64,000 bases of DNA, from the NCBI GenBank assembly GCA_951406725.2, contig OX597817.1:99510001-99574000 (forward strand), read 5' to 3'. The stretch comes from Octopus vulgaris. Taxonomy: Eukaryota. A program made the position numbers and the translations under genes. This document shows positions 27,210-50,810 of the stretch, piece by piece; within the stretch, counting starts at the first letter, position 1, and each line of letters opens with the position of its first letter. The notes beneath the pieces were generated by a model. It had not been told where the DNA came from and did no database searches. It worked only from the letters and a program-made list of their open reading frames with translations.

Positions 27210-28673
27210 CTACTCCCCGGCGCACAGATCTGGGAATGAACCCGTTCTGCTGCCAGTTCGCATAGACCTCGTCAGTAGCTGCCCGAACAAGTCTGGCATA
27301 CTCTTATATAACTCATAGGGTAGACCATCCAAACGCGGCGCCCTGCCCGCGCCGCAGTCCACCATTGCCTCAACCACCTCCTCAGGCGTGATTGGCCCTT
27401 CACATCTCGCCCCGATAGTAAAGTCCCTCCTCCTATCCGGTCCGCCGCCCACACCGAAAAGCTGAGCGAAGTGCTCCTGAAAGGCCTCACACATCTCCTC
27501 GGGTTCGTTTATCAACTCACCTTGTTGGTTCGTCAAAGATCGAATCGTGGGGTCATTACCACGCTGAGCTTCCACCACTCGGGGACATCTCACGGCGTTG
27601 ATTCCTTCACAACCCATTGCACGGATCCTAGCCCTGACAATGCAGTCCATGTGTTTGGCCTCGAGGTGCTGGTTTAACGCCAGTCTCTTGGCCTTCACGT
27701 GAGCCGCAGAGCCAGTTTTCAAGGCTTCTTCTAATTCCTTAACTAGAGTTGATTCCCTCCTAGCCTCTCTAGCCACTAATCCTATGCTATATCTAATAGA
27801 CTCGAATTTGATGACTCGCTTGAGGGCATACCACCATTTGTTATCAATGATGGCACCAGATAGCGCCCTCTGGATTATAGTCTTAATCCGGTCTCTGTAC
27901 TCCTTAATCGCCAAAAGGGGCGTATTAAGTTTCCAATAACCGGAGCCTCTATTATTAGCCTTATCTATGTCAAGCTTACAGGTGACCATTTTATGATCAC
28001 TGTAGCTAACCGGGTAAAACTGTGGACACTTAGCTATTTCTCTGTCTACTTTTCTAATTAGTATCCTCTCTATGTATGACCTGGAAGATCCATCGCTGCT
28101 TGACCATGTCCACAATGGAGCGTTCGGAAATTCCAACCTATAAGGATCTGCTAGCTCAAAGCGGCTTAGCAGTTCCAGGAAGTCAATGTTACCTTTTCTA
28201 TCTGGACGCAAGCCAACACAATCTACATCCGCTTTGCAAATTGTGTTATAGTCTCCTAGCACAACTAATGAATGCGAAGTACCAAGAAAGTTTTCCAGTT
28301 CTCGAAAATAATCACTTTGCCCTTTTTGGTTGGGTGCGTAAATCGCAACCAGTCTGATAACTTTACCGTTACTGAACGTCAAATCCATGACGACCAGCCT
28401 ACCTTCTGGGTCTGAAAAAATTAACTTTTTCTCAAAAACCCGGTTTTGTTTTAATAAGACCAACACCCCACCCCCGCCGGTAGGACTGGCCGGAGAGAAA
28501 AAACTCTCGTAGCCGTCGAACAGCGGGAGCAGACCTCTTGTCCCCTCTAACCGGGTTTCTGTAGCAACAATGACATCCAAATTACGCGACCTGATATCAT
28601 TAAGGAAACGACCTTGTTTCCCGTTTGATCCCAGGCCGCGCACATTTAAACAACCAACATAAATGTAATCCAC
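27210..28673 (-). pseudogene. A1 ORF2 N-terminal part (APE endonuclease and linker)
   Basis: 487-aa ORF with EEP motifs and GSGYWKLN. Confidence 0.9.
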
Positions 28674-28686
28674 GGCTTACCTTATA

Positions 28687-30054
28687 TCAGTGGTTCGACT
28701 TGTTCGTCTTCTTCTTCTTCATTTTTTCCCTCTTTTTCCGGGCTCGTGGGGGAGGCCGACGTAGGCCCTCGTATATATATGGAGATATGTCCATTCTCAG
28801 AGGGCCCACGTCGTGAAAGAATTCGGACTTTATCCGTCCGTAATCCTTCCGGCCTATTCTATAAACAATAAAGTCTTTCGTTTTTTTAATTTTTTCCACC
28901 TTTGCCATAGCTGCCAAAACGTTAATCAACCTGTTATTGGCTGCCTTAATGGCCATAAATGTATTCGTAGTTTCTTTTCTTTTTTTTTTTGGCTCACTTT
29001 CAGAGTGGTGGTTTCTGTTTTCCGTTTATTCATGGTGATTTTTGACCACCCCTCCTCTTTTTCCTTTTCTTCGCCGCTTGTTGTTTCTGTTGCTTCTTTT
29101 TTTTTCTGTTGATACTATTGTTTCTGTAGTTTCTGGTGTTTTCGCTTCTGGTTTTTCCTTTTCTGGCGGTGCTGCTACCTGCGGTTTAGGTTGGCACTCC
29201 GCTCTCACGTGCCCCTTTTTACCGCAGCCAAAACACCTCGGCTTTCTGCCCTCCACAAACACTATCACCCTCTCCTCTTCGTTGATCTTCAACGTCTCCG
29301 GAATTTCTTCCAACGTCTGTACCTCCGCCTGTATCGCCATTGAGATGCATTGGCCTTGCCAATACTCCTCCTCCTCTACTGTAGCCTGGAGGATAGTGAT
29401 CTTGTCCTCCAGGCCTAACATCACTGCCGCCACCAGACATGTGGCGTCTGTCTCTGGGGGAATGTTGTTTATTTTGATCTTCGAGGTCCTTCTGCCTCTG
29501 TACAGGGGGAGGAGGACTATATTTTCCGCTTTTAGAGGTTCACTTGATAGCTTCTTAGCTATATCTTCTGTCCTGAACCTCACTTCTACCGTTCCGAATT
29601 TTCTTCCACGGTTTATGTAGGTGATGTCCTGCCATATTGTCTTCAGGCAACACTCGATTTTCTTCTCTTCCACTCTTTGAATGGTTTTCATCGTCGTATT
29701 ATACGTTTTGTAAATTACCCTTCTTTTATCCACTTCCTCTGTCTTGCTGACGTCCGGTATTACTGTCACTTCATTACCTTCCTTTTTCAAACATGCTGCA
29801 TATTTTTCCAGGTTGCTTCTTTCAGTGTTAATTTTTTCCAGTTTTTTGCCCGCAACCTCTGAAAACTTCTTAGTAGGGGCTTCTCCTGCTTTCGGCAACA
29901 CCGCCGGTGAGCTTTCTTCACCTGATACAGGTGAATAGGAAATAGTGGTATCCATCTCTGGATGTGGCTTAACAAGCCTTTCAATTGGCTTTAACAAGCC
30001 TTCAAAAAATTCTGGCTTCGCAAGCCTTTTGTGTGTATTTTTAAATTGTTCCAC
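28687..30054 (-). pseudogene. A1 ORF1 (gag-like: RRM-like region, CCHC knuckle, charged linker, C-terminal domain; frameshifted)
   Basis: ORFs 29026-30054 and 28687-28956 are colinear with the ORF1 of A3. Confidence 0.85.
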
Positions 30055-30225
30055 AATAATTCCCCCGCCGGGGGGGGGGGGGATTTTAATACGTAGCCTT
30101 CGCGCGAAGGCTAATAACAGTTTTTACACAAAAGACACAATATATAAAACACAGTAACAGAAATTATATTAACAAACCGGTAATAATCAGCAATCGACAA
30201 AACAGACTGGCGTATAACAGACTGG

Positions 30226-31981
30226 AATGATTTTTTTATTTACCATAAAGGTTAACACAGAGATGGACAACACACCCGGGGAACTTAAAATAAGAAACCA
30301 AATGACAAGAAAAGGAAAAAATAAAAGCAATAATGAAATATGAAAGAATATTTACAATGAGATGTAAATGTCCACTCGATCCCCGGAATCAAGAGGTTAC
30401 ATTTTCGTCAGTTTTTTCACATATATTTCACCAAATTTTTTTCTTTTTTTTTTTTTTTTTCTCCTCACAATCTTACACATATTCTATGATTGTTTCCACT
30501 TCTCTGAAGTCCATCACTGAATCCGCAGGTAGCCGCTCTCTCATTCGAACCTTCGTGAAAAATATTACATTTTCCCCGGCAGCTTTGAAGAACTCAGCGG
30601 CTACTTCCTCGGGGATTAGAGCAGTCCCCTCCCACCGGTCGGTCATCCTGTTGATCCATACATGTCCCTCCGTTTCAGTTGTTACATCGGTCATTTCAGG
30701 GCAGAGTAATCCCGCTTCCGTCCTGTATTTTCCTTCATCTTCCCTTTCGGGCTTATTTCTTCCTTGTTCTCCTCTCTTTGTTTCTCTCTTTCTCTCTTTT
30801 TGCCTTCTTTTCTTTCACCTTCCTTCTCTTGTCTTTTTGGCTCTTTTTCTGTTTTCTCTTTATCTCGTACTTTATGTTCCTTTCCTGTAGTTTCTTTTTC
30901 CTTTTGTGTACCGTCTTTTCTTTTCGCTTGACTCTGTTCTTTGTCTTGTTTTTTCCCTGTTGTTTCTCTTTCCTTTTTTTCTCTTGACTCTGTTTTGGTT
31001 CTATTAATTCCTTTTCTTTTATTTCTTTTTCCTTCATTGACTTATTATTTTCTTTCTCTTGTTGTTTTGTTTCCTTTTCTTTGCTTTCTTTCTCATTTAA
31101 TGTATTATTCTTTTCCTCAAGTTCCTTTTCCTGTTCACACTCCGCTACGAATTCATATAACGGGCACTCCTTTTTAATGTGCCCCCTTGTCCCACACAAG
31201 TAACAATTGGGTTTTCTCCCCTCTACGATTGCGCTGAGAGTATTTTCGTCTTCCACCTCTATTCTGTAGGGAAACCTTTCAATGTCTTCTGTTGTGGCCA
31301 ACAGCCACAATTCCACCCCCATATCCTTTCCAGTTCATCACGTTTGACTCCTTAATCGATTCCACCTCCACTTCCTCTTCTACTGCTCCTAGAATGGCTG
31401 TTGCCAACCATGTTCGGGATTTTAACTCGAACCCCTCTTCTTCCCTTGTATGAGGGCCACATTGTAAATTTGTCCGCTCTTAGTACGGTGGTAGCCAGCG
31501 AGGCTGCAATTTCCTCCGTTGCACAACTCACCTCCACCGTACCAAATTTCTTGCCTCTACTCACATAGGTAATTTTTTTCCATTATGTCTCCCAGACATT
31601 TCTCAATTTCGTCTATCTCTATTCTTGCCAGTTTCCTTGTATTCCTGTCTTGAGTTCTATATGTCACCGTCTTGTTTTCTTTATCCTCTTTTGTTTTCGC
31701 GGGGGGGATTAGCTTCACCCTATCACCCTCCCTTTTGAAAAGCTTTTCATATTCTTTGAGTTTCTCCTTCTCAAAGAACACCTCCCTTACAATTAGCGAC
31801 GAATCGCTTTTTTTTCCGGTGACCCCCGCGTAAGTCACCATGACTAGTGGGTCAATTCACCTTCTTCAAAAGGTTTCAACACGTGGAGGCAAACGCCTCG
31901 CGCGATACCAAATCAATTCACACACAGAAAAAATTCACCGTCTTATCACAACTAACAACACCCGGACAATTAACAGACTGG
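30226..31981 (-). mobile_element. ORF1-only non-autonomous unit B1
   Basis: ORF1 pieces 31557-31841, 31352-31564, 30753-31322 (CYLCGTRGHIKKEC), 30473-30694; no endonuclease or RT; AATAAA and 3' tail resemble family A. Confidence 0.88.
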
Positions 31982-33802
31982 AATGATTTTTTTTATTTAC
32001 CATAAAGGTTAACACAGAGATGGACAACACACCCGGGGAACTTAAGATAAGAAAGCAAATGACAAGAAAAGGAAAAAATTAAAAGTAATAATGAAATATG
32101 AAAGAATATTTACAATGAGATGTAAATGTCCACTCGATCCCCGGAATCAAGAGGTTACATTTTCGTCAGTTTTTTCACATATATTTCACCAAATTTTTTC
32201 TTTTTTTTTTTCTTTTTTTTTCTCCTCACAATCTTACACATATTCTATGATTGTTTCCACTTCTCTGAAGTTCATCACTGAATCCGCAGGTAGCCGCTCT
32301 CTCACTCGAACCTTCGTGAAAAATATTACATTTTCCCCGGCAGCTTTGAAGAACTCAGCGGCTACTTCCTCGGGGATTAGAGCAGTCCCCTGCCACCGGT
32401 TGGTCATCCTGTTGACCCATACATGTCCCTCTGTTTCAGCCGCTACATCGGTCACTTCAAGGCAGAGGTGGTAGGTTATCAATCTATAACAGTAGCAATC
32501 CCGCCTCCGTCCCGTACTCTCCCTCATACTCCCCTTCGGGCCCACCTCTTCCCTGCTTTCCTCTCCTTGTCTCTCTCCCTCTCTCCCCCTGCCCTCCTCT
32601 CCTTCACCCTCCTTCCCCCATCCCTCCGGCTCCTCCTCTGCTCTCTCCCCATCTCACACTTCACGCTCCCCTCCTGCAGCTTCCCCTTCCTTCCGCGTAC
32701 CTTCCCTTCCCTTCGCTTGACTCCGCTCCTCGTCCTGTCTCTTCCCTGCTGCTTCTCCTTCCCCCTCCTTCTCTTGACTCTGTCTTGGCTCCACCGATTC
32801 CCCTTCTTCCACTTCTTCCTCCTTCACTGACTTATTATTTCCCTTCTCCTGCCGCCCCGCTTCCCTTTCCTTGCCCTCCCTCTCATCCAATGCACTATTC
32901 CTCTCTTCAACTTGCCCCTCCTGCTCACACTCCGCCACGAATTCATATAACGGGCACTCCTCCTCAATGTGCCCCCCCCCCCGTCCCACACAAGCAACAA
33001 TTGGGCCCCCTCCCATCAACGATTACGCTGAGGGTCCCCTCGTCCTCCACCTCCATTCTGTAGAGAAACCCCTCAATGTCCTCTGCTGCGGCCAACAGCC
33101 ACACACAATTCCACCCCACATCCCTCCCAGCTCCCCACGCTTGACTCCCCAATCGATTCCACCTCCACCTCCTCCGCCGCCGCTCCCAGAATGGCTGCTG
33201 CCAACCATTCATTTTCAACTTCTGGGGTCATGTTCGGGATTCCAACTCGAACCCCTCCTCCTCCCCTGTGTGAGGGCCACACTGTGAACTTTTCGGCTCC
33301 CAGCACGGTGGTATCCAGCGAGGCTGCAACTTCCTCCGTTGCACATCTCACCCCCACCGCACCAAACTTCTTGCCTCCACTCACATAAGTCATTTTTCCC
33401 ATCATGTCTCCCAGACACCTCTCGACCTCCTCTATCTCCACTTCCGCCAGCTTCCTTGCACTCCTGTCTTGGGTTCCACATGTCACCGTCTTGCCCTCTC
33501 TATCCTCCTTTGCTTTCGCGGGGGGGGGACCAGCCTCATGCTATCACCCTCCCCTTCGAAAAGCCTTTCATACTCTTTGAGCCTCTCCCTCCCAAAGAAC
33601 ACCTCCCCTACAATCAGCGACGAATCGCTTCTCCCTCCGGCGACCCCCGCGCAAGTCGCCATGACTAGAGAGCAAATTCACCCTCTTCAAAAGGTTCCAA
33701 CACGTGGAGGCAAACGCCTCGCGCGATACCAAATCAACTCACACACAGAAAAAATTCACCGTCATATCACAACCAACAACACCCGGACAATTAACAGACT
33801 GG
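31982..33802 (-). mobile_element. ORF1-only unit B2, A-to-G hypermutated copy of B1
   Basis: Near identical to B1 at both ends; dense T>C (plus strand) changes over ~32430-33680. Confidence 0.9.
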
Positions 33803-35988
33803 AATTGTTTTATTACAACCCACTAGGGGCGAACACAGAGGGGACAATACAACCTGATGTGGGGTCAGATTCTCAAATGGGGTTACAAAAAAGATGAGTT
33901 TAAAAATTCACAACAATACAAAAATGTAAAAACGAATGAAGAACAGACCGGAAGACATTACGGATGGAGTGGGGGCGGGTTTAGCTCGGACCCCACGAGC
34001 CCCGCCTCACCACTGATACTTTGGTTTCGTCTTGTTTTACATTTACGTGGTGTCATCCACTCGCAACTTTCGTGCTACATCTTTCCATCGTTCTTCATGC
34101 ACTTTCTTAGTCAGGCATTTTCTCTCCAGCCCTATCTTCCTTTTTAGGTGAAAGATGGAGTAATTCATCAGTCCAGGGCCGGAGATGAACTTGCCTGACC
34201 GTAAACCTTTCATCCTGGTCTTCCAAATCACCTCTCTCGCAATTGCTACAACAACGAGAAAACAATTCTTACCTTCTTTCGCGAGGAAATCTGGTGGGTC
34301 AATTTTTATAATAGACTCAGTCGACAGCTGTACTTTTCATGTGCTTGACAACAGCTATTCGGCATAAACCCACACCTCAGACACGACCGAACAATGAACA
34401 ATAGCGTGTGGGACGGTTTCCCTATCCCGCCCGAATCTTGGACATATCGGACTGCCTTGGCCACCGTGCCTTGCGAGTTTATCCCGAACAGGTAGAGCTC
34501 CTCTGTAACAATGCCGTGCCAGAGACTTTTGGAAGTTGTCCAGGCTCTTTGGCCCGAATGTACGTTGGAACAGACTGGCCAGCTGATTATCGTCGAGACC
34601 TAGGGCTTCCTCCAAGGTATCTTCACATTCCGCCTCTACCAACCCTCTATAAAAGAATGTGGTGGAACCCCCACCGGAGGCGTTGTCCGAGCGACAGAAT
34701 AGCAGGAGAGCCTTGCGACACTCCGTGTACCATGTGCCCAGTTTCGATCTACGATTCAGCCAGGTTTCCCATCCACCGAAACTAGTGAACTTGGGAAACA
34801 TCAGTTTTGCTAGCGGAGACCACACCCGTTCACCATCCAGGTAGAGCCACAGATGCCTTAACCACAGCGCATGTCTGCGCATCATCAGCCAAGGAATCCC
34901 TAGCCCACCATTTAACGGTTGTTGACAGCAAGTAGAGCGTTTCACAAGTGGTTTCCCGCCCTTCTCCAAAAAGTAGAAGAGCTGTCTTTCCAACTTGATC
35001 AACCACGAATCAGGGCAAGGAACGACGGATAGGCGGTGGGTGATAACCGATGCAATAAACACATTGGCTACCTCCGCCAAGACCAGGTCTTGGCTACTGC
35101 AGCCACCCTGCTCGATACCTCGCCCCAGTTCTTCTCTATTTGGAGGTCTGGACCGAACCAAACCCCGAGCAACTTAATCGGACCCTCCGTCCAACGTCCC
35201 ACGACGCTGTCTGGAGGCATCGACTTGCCTCTCCAGGTGCCGAGCTGCAAGCCGACTGACTTTTCACGATTAACCTTTGCTCCTGTTACCGTTTCGAAAA
35301 CCTCTATGGCCTTGCCTACCCTCTGTAGGTGATCCATTTCGGTTACGATGATGGTGATGTCATCCGCGTACGCTGACACCGATTTTCCACAACCTGGCTG
35401 TCTCCGGATGCCGTTCAGTTTTCGCAGTAATGGCTCAAGGGCCATCACGTACAAAAGCGGGGAGAGCGGACACTCTTGACGAACCGAGCGCTTGATGTTG
35501 AACGGCTTCGAAAAGAAGCCGTTCACCCGAACTACCGAGTTGATGTTATCGTAAATTTGAATAATCCACCTGAGGAAGCCAAGGCCCAGCCCGATCTGTG
35601 CCAGGACGGACACCAGGTAGCGATGGTCGACCCTATCAATTGCCCCACCCTTGCCAGAATCACTATTAAACCCCTCTATAGTGTAACGCATAAGATGGAG
35701 ATTATCCTGCCTCTTCTCTTTCTGTTGTTTTTTCTGGGTTTTCTGGTGTTGCCTCTGGTGGTGCTTCTTGTTTTTCCTTTTCTGGCTGAGCTGCTTCCTG
35801 CGGTTTAGGTTGGCACTCTACCCTCACGTGCCCCTTTTTACCGCAGCCGAAGCACCTCGACCTTCTGCCTTCTACGAAGACCACCACTCTTTCCTCCTCG
35901 CTGATCCTCAACGTCTCTGGGATTTCGTCTAGCGTTTGCACCTCTGCCTGAATTGCCATTGATATGCATTGACCTTGCCAATGCTCAG

Positions 35989-36960
35989 TGTAAGAAATAT
36001 GAACGCACGTGGTCGCATTGTGTAGGGAATACGATCGCACGTGGTCATATTCTTAACGAATTATTATAAGCCATAGATACAATGCAGTACCAAAAGAAAC
36101 ATAGGTGAATTGACGCCAAGCCGTACCACTGTTTGAGATAAGATAAGATTTTATTTAGCAATGGTGTTAATGTTAGAAGGTTGTGAGTGCTAGCAAGTGT
36201 GTGTGTGTGTGCATGCAACACGTGTTTGTGTCTGTGTGTTTGTGTGTGTGACATAACAATCAGAGTGAATGCGTTTGGCATAGAAGGGTACAGAGCATAG
36301 AGTTAATGATGGAAATTGATTTACTGTTCATGAGGTACACGAAGTGTAAGCGTTCAATATCAAGATGTTGTGTCTCGGAGCTGAGGTTAGTTGAATCACT
36401 TGTTGTGCTTATCTTTCTCTTGATATAGATATTCTTTCAGATATATATATACTGCAACTGTTTTTCCGTGGTGAGATTTTCACCTAACAGCATGAGTTGA
36501 ATCTGTAGTTATCTTGTGTACAAATTAAATCTTCGTAGATAGAGACGATGTTGGCGATGACGTTATGTCTGTCGCTTGGTTTACTATAGCGTCTTCATAT
36601 TATGTTTTGCTTGGTTGTCGTCTGCCTTTCGAACTGGAACATGGTTGAGTATGCTCTGTGTGGTCTCCGACTAAGACCTTAAAAGGTCTTAAGCCAAAAG
36701 ACAGTGAATCGTGATATATCAGCCTATTTAAAGAGTTGAGATGGCTCAAATGAAAAGTCCTATCCGAAAGCCGTGATTGGTCAGTTTACACACTAGCGCG
36801 AAGTAAGTAGAGAGACAGACCGCGCTTAGATGCTAACCAATCAAAATAGTGGACACAACAACGTTAACCTAGCCAAAGATGTTTGTAATCTCAAACGAGA
36901 TCATTCTTAATATTTTTCTCAAACAGTGAAGATAGCAATGAAGAAAACAATATTGCTACA
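35989..36960 (-). mobile_element. Probable solo LTR nested in A2 ORF1
   Basis: TGTAAG...CTACA inverted termini; minus-strand TTTAAATA and AATAAA; ORF1 resumes exactly after it; TSD unclear. Confidence 0.5.
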
Positions 36961-37219
36961 CTCCTCCTCCTCTACTGTGGCCTGGAGGATGTTGATTTTT
37001 TCCTCCAGGCCTACCATAACTGCCGCCATCAGGCATGTGGCGTCTGCCTCTGGGGGAATATTCTTTATTATTATTTTCGAGGTCCTTCTGCCTCTGTACA
37101 GGGAAGGAGGACAATATTCTCCGCTTTCAACGGTTCGGTTGATAGCTTCTTAGCTATCTCTTCCGTTCTGAACCTTACTTCAACTGTTCCGAATTTTTTA
37201 CCGCGATTTATATAAGTGA

Positions 37220-37733
37220 CTAGCAGTATCGCCCGGTGTTGCTCGGGTTTGTAAGGGAAATAACTATATAAGCATTTTTAGAGAGTTACTTCCCTTATAG
37301 ATGCCAATTCGGGCTTTCTTAGCCATTTCTGTTTTGGTGTCTTCAAGCCATGAAGTCATTGTTCTAAAAGAACGCTGGTCTCCTTGACAACGCTTTACGA
37401 CGTTGATTTCCTTACACTCCCTTCCCCACAGCTTCACGGGGGAGGGAAGAAGGGGGAGAAGCAAACAGGTGCAGGTGTGACCATGGACGCCAACTCCGCC
37501 GCCATCGACACACGAAAAATTATGCATTAAAATGGAATAAAAAAATTATGTTAAATCATTTTTAAAATCGTAGACTCATCGTAGACGCGCGCTAATACTC
37601 AGACGGGCTCGATATGAATCACGACTATAAGATACCCGAATTTGGTTAAACTGCTCCGCAAAATGTGGGAGTAGTTAGGAATCTAAATCGAAGGGGACAG
37701 ACACTCACACAACTACAGTTTTATATATATAGA
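37220..37733 (-). mobile_element. Non-autonomous Helitron nested in A2 ORF1
   Basis: Sense 5'-TCTATATATATAAAA..., 3' hairpin (cccggtgttgctcggg) plus CTAG; inserted between A and T without TSD. Confidence 0.88.
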
Positions 37734-38313
37734 TATCCTGCTATATTGACTTCAAGCAGTTTTCTCTTTTTTTTTCTTCTATTCTTTGGATGGTTTTACT
37801 TGTCGTGTTGTACGTCTTGTATATAATTCTTTTTTTCTCTACTTCCTCCATTTTGTTCACGTCAGGTATTATGGTCACTTCTGTACCTTCTTTTTTCAAC
37901 ACTGCTATGTATTTTTCCAGGTTTTCTGTATTAATTTTCCTCGGTTTTTTCCCCGCAACTTCAGCGAACTTCTTTGCAGGGGGTTCTGCTGCTTTTGGTG
38001 ACACCGCCGGTGATCCTGCATCACTTGACACTGGTGAGTCGGAGATAGAGGTGTCCATCTGGCTTAACAAGCCTTTCAGTTGTAAACAAAAAAGTTCTAG
38101 CTTCGCAAGTCTCTTGAGTGTTTTCACAATAAATGTATAACAATAAAAATAATTCCCCCACGGAGGGGGGAACTCCAATACGTAGCCTTCGCGCGAAGGC
38201 TAATAACAAAATTTGTACAAAAGACAAATTAAAACAGCAGTAATCAAACGTAACAATAATTAATTAAATAAACAAACCGATATTCACTAACGCAGCAGCA
38301 ATTAACAAACTGG

Positions 38314-41300
38314 ACTTGTTAGCTCTTATTTCTTTATTCACCATACGGTTGTACATATAAAGACAGAACATCACGAATGATTTTACATGAATGTGCGTTG
38401 GGGTCTATTAAAAATTTACAAATGATTATATAATTCGGATGATAGGACATTTTTTACACAAACAATTTCACAGATAGAGTGGGGCGGGCTTACGGACCCC
38501 ACGAACCCCGCCACGACACTGACCTTGGGGGTTTTTTTTTTCCTTTTTTTCCGGCTTACCTCGCATTCATGAGGGTCCTTTTACTCACCACATTCTTCCA
38601 TCTTTCATCGAACACTTTCTTACTCAGGCCCCTCCTCTCTAGTTCTATTTGTCTTTTTAGGTGGAATTTAAAATGTTCCACCAGACTAGAACCAGAGATG
38701 AAGTTGCCTGCTATCACCCCTTTCATCCTCGTCTTCCATACTGCCTGTTTCGCAATTGAAACCACAGAGAGAAAACAATTCTTACCTTCTTTCGTTAAGA
38801 AATCCGGTGGGTCAATTTTTACAATGGATTCAGTCGATAGCTGTACTCTTCCTCCACTTGACAACAGTTGTTCGGCAAAAACCCACATGTCCGCCACCTC
38901 TGAACACTGCACAACCGCGTGCGAGACGGTTTCCCTGTCTCGCCCACACCTCGGACAGGTCGGGCTGACTTGGCCACCGTGCCTTGCGAGTTTATCCTGA
39001 ACAGGTAAGGCTCCTCGGTAACACTGCCAAGCTAAGGACTTCTGAAAATTATCCAGGGTCCTCGGCCCAAATGTACGTTGGAACAGACTGGCCAGCTGAT
39101 TATCGTCGAAACCTAGGGCTTCCCCTAGCGTATCATCGCAACCGGCCTCTACAAACCTTCTATAGAAAACAGCGGTAGAACCAGTTCCTCAGGTATTGCC
39201 CGAGCGACGGAATAGTCGGAGTGCCTTGCGACACTCCGTATACCATGTATCCAACTGCGATCTGCGATTATACCAGGCTTCCCGTCCACCAAAACTGGTG
39301 AACTTGGGAAACATCTGTTTCGCCAACGGAGACCACACCCGTTCACCATCAAGATGGATACACAGATGCCTTAACCTCAGCGCATTTCTGCGCATCATTA
39401 GCCACGGCATCCCTAGTCCACCCTTTAACGGTTTTTGACAACAAACAGAGCGTCTCACAAGTGGTTTCGAGCTCTTCCACAAGAAGTGAAAGAGCTGTCT
39501 TTCCAACATGGTCAACCACGAATCCGGGCAAGGAACGACGGCAAGGCGGTAGGTGATCACCGATGCGATAAACACATTGGCTACCTCCGCCCTACCTTTC
39601 AGGGATAACCACCGCCAAGACCAGGTCTTGGCTACTGCAGCCACCCTGCTCGATACCTCTCTCCAGTTCTTCTCTATTTGGAGGTCTGATCCGAACCAAA
39701 CCCCGAGCAACTTAATCGGACCCTCCGTCCAACGTCCCACGACGCTGTCTGAAGGCATCGACTTGCCTCTCCAGGTACCGAGCTGCAAGCTGACTGACTT
39801 TTCACGATTAACTTTTGCTCCTGTCACCGTCTCGTATACCTCTATGGCCTTGCCTACTTTACGTAGGAGGTCCACTTCAGTCACGATGATAGTGATGTCA
39901 TCCGCGTACGCCGAAACCGACATTCCACGACCTGGCTGCCTCGGGATGCCACTCAGTTTTCGCAGCAGCGGCTCGAGAGCCACTACATACAAAAGCTGGG
40001 AGAGTGGGCATCCTTGACGAACCGAGCATTTGACTCTGAACGGCTTAGAAATAAAGCCGTTCACCCGAACTACTGAGTCGACGTTATCGTACATTTCGAT
40101 GATCCACCTGAGGAAGCAAAGACCCAGGCCGAACTGAGCCAGAACAGACACCAGGTAATGATGGTCGACCCTATCAAAAGCTTTTGATTGGTCTAAATGG
40201 ACCACTGCCCCTCCTTTGCCGGGATCGCTATTAATTCCCTCTATAGTGTATCTAATTAGATGGAGATTATCCTGAATGGACCTGCCTAGTACGGCACACG
40301 TTTGTGCCTTCCCTATTAGACCATCCGCGACACGCGCCAATCTATTCGATAACACTTTGGCCAAAATCTTCAGCTCTGCGTTAAGCAGAGTGATGGGCCT
40401 AAAATTATCAATGACACCCCCCCCCCCTTGTCCGGGTCCTTCTTGATTAGTGTCACCACTTCACGGCGCACAGATCTGGGAATAAACCCATTCTGCTGCC
40501 AGTTCGCGTAGACGTTCGCCAGTAAGTCCCCGAACAAGTCCGGCATACTTTTATAAAGCTCGTAGGATAGAAGCTTCACACATCTCCTCGGGCTCGTCTA
40601 TCAACTTACCTTGTTGGTTCATCAAAGATCGAATTGTGGCATCGTTACCACGTTGGGCTTCCACCACTCGGGCCCATCTCGCGGCATTAATTCCTTCGCT
40701 CCCCATTGCACGTTGTCTAGCCCTGACAATGCAACCCATGTGTTTGGCTTCGAGGTGCTGGTTCAAAACCAGTCTCTTGACCTTCACCTGGGCTGCCGTG
40801 CCAGTTCGCATTGCTTCCTCTAAGTCCTTAACTAGTGCTGATTCCCTTCTAGCCTCTCTAGCTACTAGATCTATACTATATCTAATGGACTCATATCTGA
40901 TGGCTCGCTTGAGGGAATACCACCATTTGTTGTTAATTATGGTTCCGGTCAAAGCCCTCTGAATCATTAACCTTATCCTGTCACTGTACTCCTTAATCGC
41001 CAAAAGGGACGTATTAAGTTTCCAGTAACCAGGACCTCTATTCGTCTTATCTATGTCTAGCCTACAGGTGACCATCTTGTGGTCACTGGAGCTGACCATG
41101 TGGAGCTGTGGACTCCTAGCTAGTTTCTTATCTACTTTTCTAATTAGTATTCTGTCTATGTATGACTTGGTAGATCCGTCGCTGCTTGACCATGTCCACA
41201 ATGGAGCGTTCGGATGTTCCAGTCTATATGGATCTACCAGCTCGAAACGTCTTAGTAGATCCTGGAAGCAAGCATTTCCTTTCCTATCTGTTCGCGAGCC

Positions 41301-43527
41301 CTCACAGTCTACCCGCGCATCGTAGACTGTGTTGAAGTCTCCTAAAACAACTATAGGATGTGATGTACTCAGAAACTTTCCAAGGTTCCGAAAATAATCA
41401 CTTTGTTCCCCTTGACTGTGGGGTGCGTAAACCGCAACCAGCCTGATTGTCTTACGACTACTGAACGTCAAATCAACGACAACCAGTCTACCTTCTGGAT
41501 CTGAAAAAATCAACTTTTTCTCAGAACCAACATCACGCTTCCGCCGAACCAACATCACGCTTCCGCCGAACAGACGGCTCGGAGAGATAATTCTCTCGTA
41601 ATCGCCGAACAGCGGGAGCGGATCTCTTGGCCCCTTTAACCAGGTTTCTGTGGCAACAACTACATCTAAATCCCGTGATCTCTGATGTCATTTAGGAGGC
41701 GCCCTTGCTTCCAGTTCGACACCAGGCCACGCACATTTATTCACTCTACATGAATACGAGCCATCACCTACCTTTTAGTTGGTTTTCCTTTTTTCCGTTT
41801 GTCGTGGGGGGATGTCAGCATTATACAACGACTCGTGCAAGTCGAGACGCAGACCTCTGATGTCTTTTGGGTATTCCTCATGTATTATGTTGTAATTTAA
41901 CATGTCAATCTTACACACTTCTACATTTTGGGGCAATACCCTGTAAGTTCGAATTTTTTCCGCTGTTGGGGCTTCATTAATAAGTTTCACCAACCTATCA
42001 TTATCTTTGTTTATTGAGATGTACACCATCTCCAATCCTTTCATTTTTTCTTTGGGCTTTGTGGGGGTGATGGGGGGGACGGCGGGGAGTAGTTTGGGAG
42101 GGGAGGGAATTGTTCGACACTGGGAGGTGGGGGTGGGGTGGTTGTTCGGGTTGGGTTGGGGGGTCTTCTCTTTTTTTTTCTTTTGTGGGGAACCGTGGTT
42201 GGGTGGGGTAAATTTTCCCCCCTGTGTGTTATTTTTCTTTTTGTTTGTGCATGGGGTGGGTGGGTTTAAGTCTTCATTTTTTCTTTTTGGTGTGTTTTTT
42301 TCTGCCTCACCAGTGTGAAGGCATTTTCTTCTTCTGTTGTTTTCTCTTCCACCGTCTCTTTTTTTCCTCTTCTCCTCTGCTTCAGTCCTTTTTCTATCTA
42401 CTTCTTTCTTGCGGGTGGGGCAGTCTATACGTATGTGGCCTTTCTCACCACATCCGTAGCATCTCGGCTTTCGCCCCTCCACCACCACCCGCAAGTTTAT
42501 TTCATCGCTGAAATTAATATTTTCTGCGATCTCCTCCAATGTCTCTGGGGCCGCCTGCATCGTCACTTGTAGAGTTTGCCCTCTCCAGTTTTCCTTCCGT
42601 ATCTTCGTTATCTCTATAACACTTATTTTTTCTTCCAGCCCTATTAGTAAGGCTGGAAGCAACCACTCCGCCTCGTTTTCTGGAGGTATTTCCTCTATTT
42701 TTATTTTGGCGGTCCTCCGCCCCAAATAGGAAGGCAAGAGAGCAATATCACTCGCCATAATTGGGGTTAGCGAGTGCTTTCTTGCCATTTGCTCACTCTT
42801 AAAATAGACCATTATTGTGGCGTACTTTTTGCCCCATGTCACAAAATCTACGTCTTGCCATATGGGTTGCAGACACTTCTCTATCTGTTCTTTTGTTACT
42901 TTTTCGATTTTTTTCTCTTTTATTACAAATGACTTGTAAATCACTGTCCTTCTTTGTGTTTCGTTTTTAATTTCTTCTGGGAGGGTAGCTTTTATATTAT
43001 TCCCCTCCCTTACAAACATGTTTTAGTATTTTTCGTATTCTATGTCTTCCATTTTTATTTCCTCGGTCTTCCGTCCAGCGGCGGCTGCGAAGTTGTACGT
43101 TTTGGTTGCTTGTTTTTCTTTGGAAGGCAAACCTTCTATAACTTTAGCTGCAGACACAGCTTCACTTGAAGGCGAACCTTCGATAACTTTAACTGCAGGC
43201 GAACCTGCTTCACTTGAAGGTGAACCTTCGTCATTTGAAGCGGACAGTGTTTCCACTTCAAACAACATTTTTTTGACATCATGTCTTTTTTTTTTCATTT
43301 TTTCAAATGTATTGTTCATTTTTTTTACAAATGTAATGTTATATTTTTTTCCTTTGGTATGTAACGTTTAGCACTCTTCAACAACAATATTTTCCGGTAT
43401 TAAACCAGACGTTCAAAGTTCAAACAAAACAACAATTTTTTTAACAAACGCTAAACAGTTACTTACAAATTACTCAAAATAACACCACGCTTCAAAGACG
43501 GGAAAAATTAGACATCAATGAAACTGG
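38314..43527 (-). mobile_element. Tx1-group unit C1 (full length, frameshifted/deleted ORF2)
   Basis: ORF1 41775-43319 (CYGCGEKGHIRIDC; stop at 43023); ORF2 pieces 38556-41764. Confidence 0.92.
41775..43319 (-). pseudogene. C1 ORF1 (gag-like, CCHC knuckle, Pro/Lys-rich linker)
   Basis: ORFs 43023-43319 and 41775-43019 in one frame, separated by a stop. Confidence 0.85.
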
Positions 43528-45895
43528 ACTTGTTTTATTATTACCCACAAAGGGCGAACATAGAGGGTACAGGATGGAAGCACTCCGTCGGTAACGACGA
43601 TGAGGGTTCCAGTTGATCGGAATCAACGGAACAGCCTGCTCGTGAAATTAACGTGTAAGTGGCTGAGCACTCCACAGACACGTGCACCCTTAATGTAGTT
43701 CTCGGGGATATTCAGCGTGACACAGAGAGTGACAAGGCCGGCCCCTTGAAATACAGGTACAACAGAAACAGGAAGTAAGAGTGAGAGAAAGTTGTGGTGA
43801 AAGAGTACAGCAGGGATCACCACCATCCCCTGCCGGAGCGTCGTGGAGCTTTTAGGTGTTTTCGCTCAATAAACACTCACAACGCCCGGTCTGGGAATCG
43901 AAACCGCGATCCTATGACCGCGAGTCCGCTGCCCTAACCACTGGGCCATTGCGCCTCCACAGAGGGGACAGTACAATCGGGAAAAAATAAAATTAATGAG
44001 ATATGAAGTATGTATAAATGTGGTGTAATGCCCCACCCGATCCCCGAAATCAGGTGGTTACATTTCGTCATTTTTAATTACATTTTACAATATTTTCAAA
44101 AATAACTAAATACATTTTACAGCATTTCGCAATACATTCGACCGCAATACATTTCAAAAGGGAATTTCCAAAATACATTATCAATTGAATATTTTACAGA
44201 AAAATTGTTTTCCACAAATTCAAATATAAAGCTTTCATAATACATTTTCAAGATTTCAAAGTACATTTGAAATTAACAAAAGTTTTTTCTAATTCTTTTT
44301 TCTTTTTTTTTCCCAATAATTTTAAATCAGTTCCATTACCTTTCTCAGGTCGTTGTAATTTTCCATCTCTCGTGGGTATCTTAGCAGTCGGCACTTCGCA
44401 TGCCTTATTACGTTCACACCGGCGGCATCGATAAACGCATCGGCGCTGTCTTCATGGACCAGTGCACCCGTTTCCCTCCACTCCGTGCCCATCCTGACCC
44501 ATGAATATCCCTCTGTTTCACTTATTAATTCCTCCATCTCCCCACAGTGTCTGTAATGAACCAATGTTCCATAAAATTTATACCTTCTATTTGAACCTAT
44601 GTTCTCTTTAGTTTTCCTCTTCGGACCTACTTCTTCTTTACCTTCCTCTCTCGGTTATTCTCTTTCTCTCTTTTTGCTTTCCTTTTCTTTTTCCTTCTCT
44701 TGTCTTTTTGGCTCTTTGTCTGTCGTATGTTCTTTTCCTGTTTTTCTTTTTCTTTTTGTGTAACATCCTTTCCTTTCTCTTGATTCTGTTCCTTCTCTTG
44801 TTTTTTTCCTGTTTTTTCTCTTTCCGTTATTTTACTTTCTTTTTCTTTCTCTTGATTTTGTTTTGGTTCTTTCTCTATTACTTCTCTACCCTGTGGCTTT
44901 TGTTCTTTTTCTATTAATTTCTTCCCTTTGATTTCATTTTTCTTCCGTGTATTGTTATTTCCTTTTACCGTTGTTTCCTTTTCCTTGTTTTCTTTCTCCT
45001 TTAGTGTATTGTTCCTTTCTTCGGGTTCTTTTTCCTTCTCTTCTTTGTTTTCCTCTGCTCTTTCACACTCCGCCATAAATTCGTATAGCGGACATTCTTT
45101 TTTTATGTGTCCTCTTGTCCCACACAAGTAGCAGTTAGGTTTCCTCCCCTCCACGATTACGCTGGGGGTTTTTCCATCTTCTACTTCTATTTGGAAGGGA
45201 ATCTGTTTTATATCTCTGTTTGTGGCAGTCAGCCACATCTCTACCCCGAATCCCTTCCATTTCACTATGTTGGTCTCCTTTATCGACCCAATTTCTATCT
45301 CTTCCTCAGCTGACCCTAGGATGGCTGTTACCAGCCATTCTGTCTTCAATTCTGGGGGTATATTTGGGATTTTGACCCGTACCCCTCTTCTCCTTTTGTA
45401 AGTAGGCCACATGATAAAGTTTTCGGCTCGGAGTACGGTGGTAGCTAGCGAGGCCGCAACTTCCACCGTACCATATTTCTTGCCTTTGCACACAAAGGTT
45501 GCCTTCTTCATTACGTCGTCCAGACATTTTTCGATCTCTTCTATTGCTATTCTTGATAGCTTTCTTGTGATCTTGTCTTGTGTTCTATAAATTATTGTCT
45601 TGTCTTCATTTTCCTCCTTTGCTTCAGCAGGAGGGACCAGTTTCACGCTGTCACCCTCCCTTTCAACGAATTTCTCAAACTCTTTTAGCTGTTCTTTTTT
45701 GAAGAACACTTCTCTTACTGTAAGCGACGTATCGCTTTTCATTGCGGCGACCCCCGCGTAAGTCTCCATGACTTGAGGGTCGGCGCACCTTCTACAAAAA
45801 GGTTCCAACGCGCAGCGGCAAACGCCTCGCGCGATTCAATTTTCAATTTCTATACACAAAAATTACTAACTACTTAACGCAATCAATGAAACTGG
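43528..45895 (-). mobile_element. ORF1-only non-autonomous unit D (related to B, with an A-type 3' tail)
   Basis: ORF 44627-45808 (CYLCGTRGHIKKEC) plus C-terminal domain 44322-44564; TSD atcaatgaaactgg at 43514-43527 and 45882-45895. Confidence 0.9.
43573..43958 (-). mobile_element. tRNA-derived SINE nested in the 3' tail of unit D
   Basis: Sense A box TGGCCCAGTGG, B box TTCGATTCCC; body shared with the SINE at 2722-3048; TSD agaggg(t/g)acag. Confidence 0.88.
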
Positions 45896-46294
45896 ACTTG
45901 TTTTATTAATACTCACAAGGGGCGAACATAGAGGGGACAATACAACCTGATGTGGGGTCAGATTAACGGATGGGATTACAAAAAAGGTGAATTAAAAAAT
46001 TTACAAAAATGACAAAATAGCAAAAAATCGAATGAAGAACAGACCGGAAGACATTACGGATGGAGTGGGAGCGGGTTTAGCTCGGACCCCACGAGCCCCG
46101 CCTCCCCACTGATACTTTGGTTTCGTCTAGTTTTACATTTATGTCGTATCATCCACTCGCAACTTTCGTGCTACATCTTTCCATCGTTCTTCGTACACTC
46201 TCTTAGTCAGGCATTTTCTCTCCAGCCCTATCTTCCTTTTCAGGTGAATGAAGTAATTCATCAAACCAGGGCCGGAGATGAACTTGCCTGACCG

Positions 46295-48847
46295 TTAAGC
46301 TTTCATTCTCGTCTTCCATATCACCTCTTTCGCAAATGCTACTACAACGAGAAAACAATTCTTACCTTCTTTCGCGAGGAAATCTGGTGGGTCAATTTTT
46401 GTAATAGACTCAGTCGACAGCTGTACTCTTCGTGTGCTTGACAACAGCTGTTCGGCATAAACCCACACCTCAGACACGACCGAACAATGAACAATAGCGT
46501 GCGGGACGGTTTCCCCATCCCGCTCGCATCTTGGACATATCGGACTGTCTTGGCCACCGTGCCTTGCGAGATTATCCCGAACAGGTAGAGCTCTTCTGTA
46601 GCATTGCCATGCCAGAGACTTCTGGAAGTTGTCCAGTGTCTTCGGCTCGAACGTACGTCGGAACAGACTGGCCAGCTGATTATCGTCGAGACCTAGGGTT
46701 TCCCCCAAGGTATCTTCACATTCTGCCTCTACCAACCCTTTATAAAAGAATGTGGTGGAACCCCCACCGCAGGCGTTGCCCGAGCGACAGAATAGCAGGA
46801 GAGCCTTGCGATACTCCGTGTACCATGTGCCCAGTTTCGATCTACGATTCAGCAAGGTTTCCCATCCACCGAAACTAGTGAACTTGGGAAACATCAGTTT
46901 TGCTAGCGGAGACCACACCCGTTCACCATCCAGGTAGAGCCACAGATGTCTTAACCTCAGCGCATGTCTGCGCATCATCAACCAAGGCATCCCTAGCCCA
47001 CCCTTTAACGGTTGTTGACAGCAAGTAGAGCGTTTCACAAGTGGTTTCCCGCCCTTCCACAAGAAGTAGAAGAGTTGTCTTTCCAACTTGATCAACCACG
47101 AATCAGGGCAAGGAACGACGGAAAGGCGGTAGGTGATAACCGATGCGATAAACACATTGGCTACCTCCACCTTCCCTTTCAGGGATAGCCACCGCCAAGA
47201 CCAGGTCTTGGTTACTGCAGCCATCCTGCTCGATACCTCGCCCCAATTCTTCTCTATTTGGAGGTCTGGTCCAAACCAAACCCCTAGCAACTTAATCGGA
47301 CCCTCCGTCCAACGTCCCACGACGCTGTCAGGAGGCATCGACTTGCCTCTCCAGGTGCCGAGCTGCAAGCCGACTGACTTTTCACGATTAACTTTTGCTC
47401 CTGTTACCGTCTCGTAAACATCTATGGCCTTGCCTTTCCTCTGTAGGTGATCCATTTCGGTTACGATGATGGTGATGTCATCCGCATACGCTGACACCGA
47501 CATTCCACTACCTGGCTGTCTCCGGATGCCGCTCAGTTTTCGCAGTAATGGCTCAAGAGCCACCATGTACAAAAGCGGGGAGAGCGGACACCCTTGACGA
47601 ACCGAGCGCTTGATATTGAACGGCTTCGACAAGAAGCCGTTCACCCGAACTACCGAGTCGATGTCGTCGTAAATTTGGATAATCCACCTGAGGAAGCCAA
47701 GGCCCAGCCCGAACTGTGCCAGGGCAGATACCAGGTAGCGATGGTCGACCCTATCGAATGCTTTAGATTGGTCTAAATGGACCAGTGCTCCACCCTTGCC
47801 AGAATCACTATTAAACCCCTCTATAGTGTACCACATAAGATGGAGATTATCCTGAATGGTTCTGCCGGGAACGGCACATGTCTGTACCTCCCCGATCAGA
47901 CCATCCGCGACACGCGCCAATCTTTTCGATAACACTTTGGCCAAAATCTTCAACTCTGTGTTTAGCAGAGTGATGGGCCTGAAATTATCAATGCACTCCC
48001 CCTTGCTCGGGTCCTTTCTGACGAGTGTCACTACGCCCCGGCGCACAGATCTGGGTATGAACCCGTTCTGCTGCCAGTTCGCATAGACCTCCGCCAGTAG
48101 CTGCCCGAACAAGTCTGGCATACTTTTATATAACTCATAGGGTAGACCATCTAAACCCGGCGCCCTGCCCGCGCCGCAGTCCGCCATCGCCTCAACCACA
48201 TCCCCAGGCGTGATTGGCCCTTCACAGCCCTCCGCATCTTGCCCCGATAAGCGCGGCAGCCCGTCGAGGAGGTCCGTAAAGGCCCTCCTCCTATCCAGTC
48301 CGCCGCCCTCATCGAAAAGCTGAGTGAAGTGCTCCTGAAAGGCCTCACACATCTCCTCGGGCTCGTTTATCAACTCACCTTGTTGGTTCGTCATAGATCG
48401 AATCGTGGCGTCGTTACCACGCTGAGCTTCCACCACTCGGGCCCATCTCACGGCGTTGATTCCTTCACAACCCATTGCGCGGATCCTAGCCCTGACAATG
48501 CAGTCCATGTGTTTGGCCTCGAGGTGCTGGTTTAACGCCAGTCTCTTGGCCGTCACCTGAGCCGCAGAGCCAGCTTTCAAGGCTTCCTCTAATTCCTTAA
48601 CTAGAGTAGATTCCCTCCTAGCCTCTCTAGCCACTAATCCTATGCTATATCTAATAGACTCGAATTTGATAGCTCGCTTGAGGGCATACCACCATTTGTT
48701 ATTAATGATGGCACCAGATAACGCCCTCTGAATTATAGTCCTAATCCGGTCTCTGTACTCCTTAATCGCCAAAAGGGACGTATTAAGTTTCCAATAACCG
48801 GAGCCTCTGTTTTTAACCTTATTTATGTCAAGCTTACAGGTGACCAT
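46295..48847 (-). CDS. A3 ORF2: reverse transcriptase plus C-terminal Zn finger (endonuclease part frameshifted upstream)
   Basis: APGLDGLP, NFRPITLLN, LDQSKAFDRVDH, VRQGCPLSP, YADD, CPRC..ETVPHAIVHC. Confidence 0.9.
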   Translation of the reverse strand: MVTCKLDINKVKNRGSGYWKLNTSLLAIKEYRDRIRTIIQRALSGAIINNKWWYALKRAIKFESIRYSIGLVAREARRESTLVKELEEALKAGSAAQVTAKRLALNQHLEAKHMDCIVRARIRAMGCEGINAVRWARVVEAQRGNDATIRSMTNQQGELINEPEEMCEAFQEHFTQLFDEGGGLDRRRAFTDLLDGLPRLSGQDAEGCEGPITPGDVVEAMADCGAGRAPGLDGLPYELYKSMPDLFGQLLAEVYANWQQNGFIPRSVRRGVVTLVRKDPSKGECIDNFRPITLLNTELKILAKVLSKRLARVADGLIGEVQTCAVPGRTIQDNLHLMWYTIEGFNSDSGKGGALVHLDQSKAFDRVDHRYLVSALAQFGLGLGFLRWIIQIYDDIDSVVRVNGFLSKPFNIKRSVRQGCPLSPLLYMVALEPLLRKLSGIRRQPGSGMSVSAYADDITIIVTEMDHLQRKGKAIDVYETVTGAKVNREKSVGLQLGTWRGKSMPPDSVVGRWTEGPIKLLGVWFGPDLQIEKNWGEVSSRMAAVTKTWSWRWLSLKGKVEVANVFIASVITYRLSVVPCPDSWLIKLERQLFYFLWKGGKPLVKRSTCCQQPLKGGLGMPWLMMRRHALRLRHLWLYLDGERVWSPLAKLMFPKFTSFGGWETLLNRRSKLGTWYTEYRKALLLFCRSGNACGGGSTTFFYKGLVEAECEDTLGETLGLDDNQLASLFRRTFEPKTLDNFQKSLAWQCYRRALPVRDNLARHGGQDSPICPRCERDGETVPHAIVHCSVVSEVWVYAEQLLSSTRRVQLSTESITKIDPPDFLAKEGKNCFLVVVAFAKEVIWKTRMKA

Positions 48848-49537
48848 TTTATGATCACTGTAGCTGACCGGCTAAAACTGTGGACACTTAGCTATTTTTC
48901 TGTCTACTTTTCTAATTAGTATCCTATCTAAGTATGACCTGGAAGATCCGTCGCTGTTTGACCATGTCCACAATGGAGCGTTCGGAAAAATCCAACCTAT
49001 AAGGATCTGCTAGCTCAAAGCGGCTTAGCAGTTCCAGGAAGCCAATGTTACCTTTTCACGCAATCCAACACAATCTACATCCGCTTTGCAAATTGTGTTA
49101 AAGTCTCCTAGCACAACTAATGAATGCGAAGTACCAAGAAAGTTTTCCAGTTCTCGAAAATAATCACTTTGCCCTTTTTGGTTGGGTGCGTAAATCGCAA
49201 CCAGTCTGATAACTTTACCGTTACTGAACGTCAAATCCATGACGACCAGCCTACCTTCTGGGTCTGAAAAAATTAACTTTTTCTCAAAAACCCGGTTTCT
49301 TTTTAATAGGACCAACACCCCACCCCCACCTGTAGGACTGGCCGGAGAGAAAAAAACTCTCGTAGCCGTCGAACAGCGGGAGTAGACCTCTTGACCCCTC
49401 TAACCGGGTTTCTGTAGCAACAATAACATCCAAATTACGCGTTGATATCATTAAGGAAGCGACCTTGCTTCCAGCTCGATCCCAGGCCGCGCACATTTAA
49501 ACAACCAACATAAATGTAATCCATGACCTACCTTATA

Positions 49538-50810
49538 TCAGTGGTTCGACTTTTCCTTCTCTTCATTTTTTCCCTCTTTTTCTGGGCCTCGTGGGGGAGT
49601 CTGACTCAGGCCCTCGAATATATATGGTGATGATATATCCATTCTGAGAGGGCCCACGTCATGAAAAAATTCGGACTTTATCCGTCCGTAATCCTTCCGG
49701 CCTATTCTATACAATATGAAATCATTTCTCCTTCCAATTTTTTCTACCTTGGCCATAGCTGCCAACACATTACCGAGTCTATTATTTGAGGCCTTAATGG
49801 CCATAAATGAGTTTAAAGTCTCTCTTTTTTTCTTTTGGTTTACTTTCGGAGGGGTGGTTTCAGTTTTTCTTTTTTTCCTAGTGATTTTTGACCACCCCTC
49901 CTCATTTGTCGTTTCCTCCGCCGCCGGTTCCGCTGCCTCTGTCACCTCCACACCTTCAGCCGTCCCTTCTGGGCCGCCCGGCGCTGCTTCTGGTGACACC
50001 TCTTCTGTTCTTCCACCTGGCTGAGCTGCTTCCTGCGGTTTGGGTTGGCATTCTGCCCTTACATGCCCTTTCTTACCGCATCCGAAGCACCTCGGCTTTC
50101 TGCCCTCTACAAAGACTGTGACTCCTTCCTCTTCACTGATTTTCAGTGTCTCCGGAATCTCTTCCAGGGTTTGTATCTCTGCCTGGATGGCCATCGTTAT
50201 ACGCTGCCCCTTCCAACCTTCTTCCTCCCCTACTGTGGCCTGGAGGATGTTTATTTTTTCCTCCAGGCCTACCATAACTGCTGCCACCAGACATGTGGCG
50301 TCCGCTTCTGGCGGAACATTGTTCATTGTTATCCTTGAGGTTCCTTTGCCTCTATACAAGGGGAGGAGAACAATATTCTCCGCTTTCATGGGTTCCATGG
50401 ATAGCTTTTTGGCTACTTCCTCCGTCTCAAATCTCACCTCCACTGTGCCGTATTTCTTCCCGCGGTTGATGTACGCAATTTTATCCCATATCGGTTTCAG
50501 GCAGTTTTCCATCTTTTTTTCCTCTATTCTTTGTATAGACCTACTTGTGATGTTGAAAGTCTTGTATATTATTCTTTTTTTTATCAATCTCTTCCTGCTT
50601 TTGGGCATTCGCAACCACCGCTACTTCTGTGCCCTCCTTTATCAAACAGTCTGCGCATTTCTGCAGGTTTTCAGTGTTAATTTTTTCAATTTTCTTCCCA
50701 GCTACTTCAGAAAATCTTCCAGCCGGTGCTGGGGCTTCCTCTTTCTTCGGCGACACCGCCGGTGATCCTGCATCACTTGACACGGGTGAATAGGAGATGG
50801 GGGAGTCCAT
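49538..50810 (-). pseudogene. A3 ORF1 (frameshift near 50610)
   Basis: ORF 49538-50614 plus 50541-50942; CCHC knuckle. Confidence 0.85.

Follow-up and report, generated by a model that had tools for sequence, protein, structure and literature searches.

Non-autonomous long interspersed elements (LINEs) that retain open reading frame 1 (ORF1) form a named class that includes HeT-A, HAL1 and Ag-Sponge (PMC5786205, PMC5753468). HAL1, described from mammalian L1, is an ORF1-only derivative with LINE-like 5' and 3' parts that needs an autonomous partner. HeT-A, which is Jockey-derived, lacks pol, carries only a conserved gag and stands in same-direction, head-to-tail arrays with its reverse transcriptase (RT)-bearing partners TART and TAHRE (PMC5537684). 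Tx1 elements that target DNA transposons are also known, with passengers and tandem insertion: Xenopus Tx1 lies in Tx1D and crocodilian Tx1-Mar, with SINEU, in Mariner-N4 (PMC4494074). Few clades are known to have ORF1-only LINE derivatives, and why these retain ORF1 has yet to be explained. Here we describe three such elements, B1, B2 and D, from a 64,000-nt stretch of the 2.8-Gb genome of Octopus vulgaris (positions 99,510,001-99,574,000 of OX597817.1, assembly GCA_951406725.2), referred to below as the window. They stand among eight retroelement units arranged head to tail on the minus strand from 25660 to ~54900 in the order A1, B1, B2, A2, C1, D, A3, C2, and families A and C each encode ORF1 plus an ORF2 with endonuclease and RT, as judged from the list of ORFs and from Pfam. 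With a probability of about 0.75, B1, B2 and D are members of an old ORF1-only LINE family that inserts at one Helitron site, is copied in trans by the ORF2 of family A, and whose ORF1 protein (ORF1p) packages its RNA in cis.

B1 (30229..31984, minus strand), B2 (31985..33805, minus strand) and D (43531..45898, minus strand) each consist of a 5' leader, ORF1 sequence, a 3' untranslated region (UTR) and an AATAAA near the 3' end, and a poly(A) run is absent at all three 3' ends. When four ORF2/endonuclease proteins from the A and C units were compared with B1, B2 and D, no tblastn match was found at E<=10. The preliminary description of these elements was right about the two UTRs, the AATAAA and the missing endonuclease and RT, but it had also given each of them one open ORF, and all three copies are broken. 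The ORF remnant of B1 (30473-31841) carries 23- and 28-nt deletions, and that of B2 (32234-33662) is frameshifted and A>G hypermutated over ~32470-33700. In D, the ORF (44322-45769) lies in two frames, 380 amino acids and then a C-terminal domain of 80-90 amino acids, with a frameshift near 44630-44654 and seven codons missing. The 3' tail that D shares with A is interrupted by a 393-bp insertion (43568..43960, minus strand) resembling a short interspersed element (SINE), with a tRNA-like head as judged by eye and a flanking 6-bp duplication, AGAGGG. The motif CYLCGTRGHIKKEC, proposed earlier as a mark of the ORF1 lineage, was found in B1 and D but is altered in B2.

Identity between the ORF1 of the three copies and the ORF1s of A and C is 30-35%. 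A tree with a midpoint root only was built from 55 representatives of 312 ORF1 cores; in it, the 24 rows of the family to which they belong (B/D) formed one clade with support of 100/100 and no ORF2-linked member. The protein is composed of two predicted RRM-like domains in the N-terminal part (best match the La protein, Z 8.8, rmsd 2.7, 82 aligned) and a CCHC knuckle, followed by a lysine- and glutamate-rich linker and the 80-90 amino acid C-terminal domain. A and C share a homologous C-terminal domain (probability 99.3), to which that of B/D is unrelated (0.1). A profile search of 1.84 billion representatives recovered the B/D domain in five octopus proteins and one weak bacterial match; there was no significant Pfam family (best E 0.012) and no Foldseek match at E<=0.001, and the best VIA Z was 7.0, for a generic ferredoxin-like fold. 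An origin of B/D by simple deletion of A or C was ruled out by the tree and by the unrelated C-terminal domain.

The ratio of nonsynonymous to synonymous substitution (dN/dS), calculated by the Nei-Gojobori method from intact copies only, was 0.13-0.16 for the N-terminal part between B/D subfamilies, at a dS of ~1.0-1.3, and 0.14-0.20 within subfamilies. For the C-terminal domain it was 0.17-0.51. These values indicate purifying selection on B/D ORF1, and the earlier proposals that the elements are long-lived, form a distinct ORF1 lineage and have had ORF1 kept under selection are all borne out.

To describe the family across the genome, the ORF1 of D and that of the most divergent subfamily were used as queries, each search scoring the best 150 of ~13,000 candidates (150 of 13170 for D). 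The DNA at 147 of the 150 D-ORF1 matches (30 loci, then 80 of 83 regions) was examined together with two later regions, and in the resulting 115 merged stretches at least 170 B/D-type ORF1 units were found, at 94 loci on 26 contigs. A 3' tail followed 1448-1929 nt past the start codon in 158 of the 170 units; it was not seen in the other 12, three of which lie at the edge of the examined DNA. No endonuclease or RT preceded the tail in any of the 170 units, and no endonuclease was found behind ORF1 in seven divergent relatives (43-58% identity) examined from the second search. Moreover, 264 of 265 loci were scanned for a B/D-type ORF1, or one of a second ORF1-only family, E, with an endonuclease within 1.4 kb; the seven rows returned were all cross-hits to A/C-like ORF1s. 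Full-length elements joining a B/D-type ORF1 to an ORF2, which would have contradicted the preliminary description, were thus sought and not found in this material. The 152 extracted copies clustered into groups of 97, 25, 13, 4, 3, 2 and 2 plus six singletons, with 56-86% identity between clusters. Subfamilies are present on up to 18 contigs, also at non-Helitron targets, and intact ORFs are 465-498 amino acids long.

The flanks at many of these loci proved to be the two arms of one ~750-bp repeat. Empty copies of it (L211-L214) start A|TC, finish with a hairpin and CTAG|T, and are uninterrupted across the insertion site. We take the marks of a Helitron to be a 5' TC, a 3' hairpin followed by CTRR, and insertion between an A and a T that leaves no duplication; the empty copies have these features, which identifies the target as a probable non-autonomous Helitron. 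A 34-mer spanning the target site gave 132 exact matches in comparison with 0 for a control, and four of five such sites examined were empty Helitrons, the fifth lying after a C element. Single insertions with both Helitron arms were present at L013 and L024, and arrays are bounded by the arms. In the window, the 3' arm (25478..25659, minus strand; hairpin, CTAR end) starts with the target ATTCCAGTCTG and matches the 3' arm in L013, L019, L024 and the empty sites L211-L214; the 5' arm was not seen at the C2 end of the window array.

Tails finish in AATAAAACA, AATAAAATC or AATAAAATA; the target or the next head comes immediately after. The heads open with variants of the ~10 nt that lie just downstream of the cut (ATTCCAGTCT), and the junction motif thus represents target sequence that the element has copied: it is indeed common to the elements, as had been proposed, but it is not a motif of their own. 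The 9 nt upstream of the site follow three of five C tails as a duplication and are absent at the A, B and D junctions. C thus duplicates 9 nt on insertion, and A, B and D insert bluntly.

A second site, GAAC|ACATGGAGG, is used by A, B/D and E, and the A and B/D subfamilies found there bear matching heads. It coincides with the start of an ORF1 fragment in a Helitron variant (L097, C7:109541175-109545675), which holds 270 bp of another ORF1 lineage. Older B/D subfamilies occur at other targets, as seen at the 3' junctions of L090, L069, L088 and L026, and the heads contain pieces of several former target sites, stacked on one another. Flanking L016, L075 and L126 is a dispersed repeat, SINE-like as judged by eye, whose tail is nearly that of A and D; the same enzyme may serve it.

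The tails connect most of the family to A. Tails of D-type and cluster-10 copies scored 70-78 against A (shuffle maximum 26-36), and the last ~49 nt of D match A at 86-92%. A-like tails were present in the main B/D subfamilies (97+25+13 of 152 copies). The earlier claim that the last ~45 nt match family A therefore stands for D but is weak for B, with a score of 41 for the B1 tail against A1 (shuffle maximum 32). Many A-type ORF2 frames are open over 1128-1134 amino acids. Pfam placed PF03372 on A1, PF00078 and PF13966 on C2, to which A3 is 78% identical, and PF00098 weakly on A ORF1. The combination of an APE endonuclease and RT in ORF2 (the RT by Pfam on the related C2) with a CCHC ORF1, a Tx1-clade feature, is present in A, and so is a target-sequence preference, as seen from the shared Helitron sites. 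We presume A to be a Tx1 element; no clade name was attached to any ORF2 match, the best of which was from Argonauta. Because of the insertion geometry (blunt A, B and D junctions as opposed to C) and the tail match of the majority, A is the likely helper of B/D.

Under the account that we favor, the ORF2 protein (ORF2p) of A would recognize the ~45-nt tail of B/D RNA and nick the target at AACA|ATTCCAGT, and reverse transcription primed at the nick would insert the RNA. The copied head would rebuild the target at each junction, and as a result later insertions would stack and arrays would grow. B/D ORF1p likely packages its own RNA in cis, and selection would act on it because only RNAs making a working ORF1p leave descendants. 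The helper endonuclease would be one whose blunt insertions at a defined site restore that site.

As in the Tx1 systems, A is an APE LINE within a non-autonomous DNA transposon, its non-autonomous passengers share the target, and insertions are in tandem. In contrast to those systems (PMC4494074), the octopus target is Helitron-like, the passengers encode ORF1, A and B/D show no clear target duplication, and the target is copied into the head. B/D has the features of the ORF1-present class, namely an ORF1-type protein without endonuclease or RT, multicopy units and a 3' end shared with A (weakly for B1), and resembles HAL1 in its LINE-like 5' and 3' parts and its need for a partner. Unlike HAL1, no close autonomous ORF1 parent was found, the protein has its own C-terminal domain, copies stack at one target, and its partner, a mollusc LINE, is site-specific. 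The mammalian L1 origin of HAL1 proper was not seen in B/D: the nearest named proteins are from O. vulgaris and O. sinensis, in line with the Argonauta match of ORF2.

An indication that the family moves through RNA comes from B2. This copy is no simple twin of B1, relative to which it is A>G hypermutated. On the sense strand, B2 differed from B1 by 215 A>G and 10 G>A changes (p 3e-51), with 9 T>C and 7 C>T, and the A>G changes were limited to about nt 100-1330. Three other relatives gave the same direction for B2 (219-224 A>G). APOBEC-type G>A change in B1 instead was ruled out, as these three relatives also have A. Of 157 adenines that follow G, 9 were changed, as opposed to 201 of 378 that follow other bases (p 2e-28), and change was commoner with G or C than with A as the next base. 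This pattern of clustered, one-strand A>G change with G depleted 5' and enriched 3' fits the ADAR rule, and this neighbor preference has been reported for hyper-editing of RNA (PMC4365171). APOBEC is known to leave G-to-A editing scars in vertebrate long terminal repeat (LTR) elements (PMC4866542). B2 is similar to deaminase scars (PMC4866542, PMC4365171) in having dense, strand-specific and context-biased transitions in a single copy, and is unlike APOBEC scars in that the change is A>G on the sense strand, avoids a 5' G as ADAR does, and is fixed in the DNA of an invertebrate non-LTR element.

Eight sequencing runs under four organism labels contained 59-79% of the sampled words of B2. The letters of B2 at 33000-33797 recur in contigs that come from four runs of four studies, with between 0 and 8 differences across 214-670 nt; two of these runs are presumed to be DNA, for the other two the kind is not recorded, and no RNA run was listed as containing B2. 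Thus, the scar is likely inherited DNA, and an assembly artefact is ruled out over this interval. It is likely that the B2 RNA was hyper-edited by ADAR as double-stranded RNA and then reverse-transcribed, so that B2 has passed through an edited RNA. The ADAR-type hypermutation therefore indicates an RNA intermediate for B/D, and B2 provides direct sequence evidence of such an intermediate for an element without RT. It also indicates that A-to-I editing, which is normally transient, can turn into a heritable DNA change via a non-LTR element.

No descendants of the edited B2 were seen among the best 40 of 199 candidates, the next best match reaching 78%. A second A>G hypermutated copy, L115 (C11:53339066, minus strand), appears to be a chimera whose 5' part resembles cluster 6 and whose 3' part resembles B. 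Specificity of hyper-editing for B/D was not supported, with 2 of 152 copies in comparison with 0 of 131 A, C, E and ORF2 segments, which may overlap (p 0.5).

Several observations weigh against the favored account, in which the helper role of A is one that we infer. The B1 tail is about equally close to C (36 against C1, shuffle maximum 27) and to A, and cluster-9 tails are C-like. Each genome search covers the best 150 of ~13,000 candidates, because of which a rare ORF2-bearing relative of B/D may still exist. These points would suit a helper other than A: family C, some other lineage of related LINEs, or a TAHRE-like element that is rare and joins a B/D-type ORF1 to ORF2. Other ORF2-bearing lineages with similar tails do occur (L251, L252, L256, L257 and L261). 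We consider such a helper unlikely, given the A-like tails of the main subfamilies, the absence of C's 9-nt duplication from B/D junctions, and the outcome of the two ORF1 searches, begun at either end of the B/D clade, neither of which found an ORF2-linked member among its best 150.

An intact ORF was present in just 18 of 151 extracted B/D copies (B2 left out), which also counts against the favored account. In the largest cluster, 143 of 190 frameshifts were in runs of at least five bases, and most were 1-nt losses. The commonest frameshift was without tree signal (17 changes, as compared with 18.7, range 15-21, in 200 shuffles). With most breaks in homopolymers and the commonest of them unrelated to the tree, they are likely due to assembly error or recurrent slippage. 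For the same reason, an inherited frameshifted subfamily spreading without ORF1 was not supported.

Finally, long homogeneous runs group by locus in the tree, with near-identical runs of up to ~20 copies on C7 and 8 on C22, and some copies may therefore be DNA-level duplicates. If this were the main route, B/D would have spread by tandem duplication in arrays or by rolling-circle copying of the Helitron inside which its copies lie. Such an origin is very improbable for the family as a whole, and may account for part of the long homogeneous runs. Array composition varies from locus to locus and heads vary inside arrays, B/D subfamilies are spread over many contigs and non-Helitron targets, and purifying selection across subfamilies requires propagation that depends on the protein. 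In addition, B2 is not a DNA duplicate of B1, because of its one-way sense-strand A>G change and the deletions that B1 has of its own.

Trans-mobilization by A is compatible with a further proposal, that the ORF1-only elements are HeT-A-like mutualists whose ORF1p A requires for targeting or packaging, or is used by the host to restrain A. The long conservation and dedicated C-terminal domain of B/D ORF1, the constant presence of A alongside (40 junctions with B/D immediately 5' of A) and the finding that HeT-A Gag targets TART (PMC5537684) speak for it, but A keeps an ORF1 of its own with the two-domain core, knuckle and C-terminal domain, and a mutualist role seems doubtful. B/D resembles HeT-A in the gag-only, pol-less structure and in the arrays shared with RT-bearing partners. 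It differs in that its arrays are internal to a dispersed DNA transposon and its helper retains ORF1. The telomeric setting of HeT-A proper was not found, the window lying at 99.5 Mb of a 176.7-Mb contig and the arrays being bounded by Helitron arms.

Among the examined arrays, B/D stood directly 5' of A 40 times, the ORF2 end stood 5' of B/D 11 times, and E stood directly 5' of B/D 12 times and never in the reverse order. This apparently polar order is biased because the sampling was centered on B/D and E.

A 2026 annotation of O. vulgaris repeats reports 13 recently active L1-Tx1 families (PMC13282606). Its main text, as distinct from the repeat library in its supplement, which lay outside the scope, contains none of the terms 'ORF1', 'non-autonomous', 'target', 'nested' or 'editing'. 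In the literature covered, which did not extend to subscription journals or Repbase, no description was found of these families or of ADAR-edited cephalopod LINE copies. Because B/D is an old family with young copies, a likely helper and an exact target, the question of why ORF1 is retained becomes testable. The family also raises the questions of whether ORF1p acts in cis, how ORF2p is captured by an RNA without ORF2, and what the new C-terminal domain does.

Family E, the second ORF1-only lineage, lies in the same arrays beside D-type copies and has the knuckle CYKCGLRGHIRAFC. It gave at least 150 matches at 94-100% identity, often as 1.75-kb tandem runs. No endonuclease was found in 30 of 30 E loci, and the tail was ~1.25 kb past the start of the ORF1 core in 29 of 30. 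In the ORF1 tree, E sits on a long branch, away from B/D. Comparison of the E and B/D C-terminal domains over 71 columns gave a score of 21.8 (maximum 18.2 in 60 column shuffles) with a probability of just 12.7, a hint that the two may be related. A broader reading, in which B/D and E make up an ancient, specialized satellite class that replaced the C-terminal domain of autonomous ORF1 with a new one, common to both and capturing helper ORF2p, with switching of tails and heads as helpers and targets change and with routine transfer of ADAR edits from germline RNA to inherited DNA, is rather unlikely. The E loci L151-L180 (e.g., C26:13930333 and C2:138773018-138792937) are young and abundant.

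The remaining units of the window array, all on the minus strand, belong to families A and C. A1 (25660..30228), a decayed ORF1+ORF2 LINE of the putative helper family, was identified from the ORF list, the Pfam endonuclease and self-blast. A2 (33806..38316) is a rearranged family A copy with an internal deletion and foreign insertions, and A3 (45899..51061) has ORF1 and an 858-amino acid open ORF2 stretch. C1 (38317..43530), of the second autonomous-type family, is followed at its 3' end by the 9-nt target duplication (GAGCTAACA), and C2 (51062..54900) has a 942-amino acid ORF2 stretch, with the 5' part missing. The ORF1 of A2 is interrupted by unrelated insertions at 36000-36950 and 37220-37730, the latter with short ends that match each other and suggest a further small DNA element. 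Outside the array, a different LINE at 56057-59180 on the minus strand has endonuclease and RT frames of 605 and 481 amino acids. Approximately 5 kb past the window end, a C-type element lies in the opposite orientation (L221, C4:99578939, plus strand) and may supply the array with antisense or double-stranded RNA.

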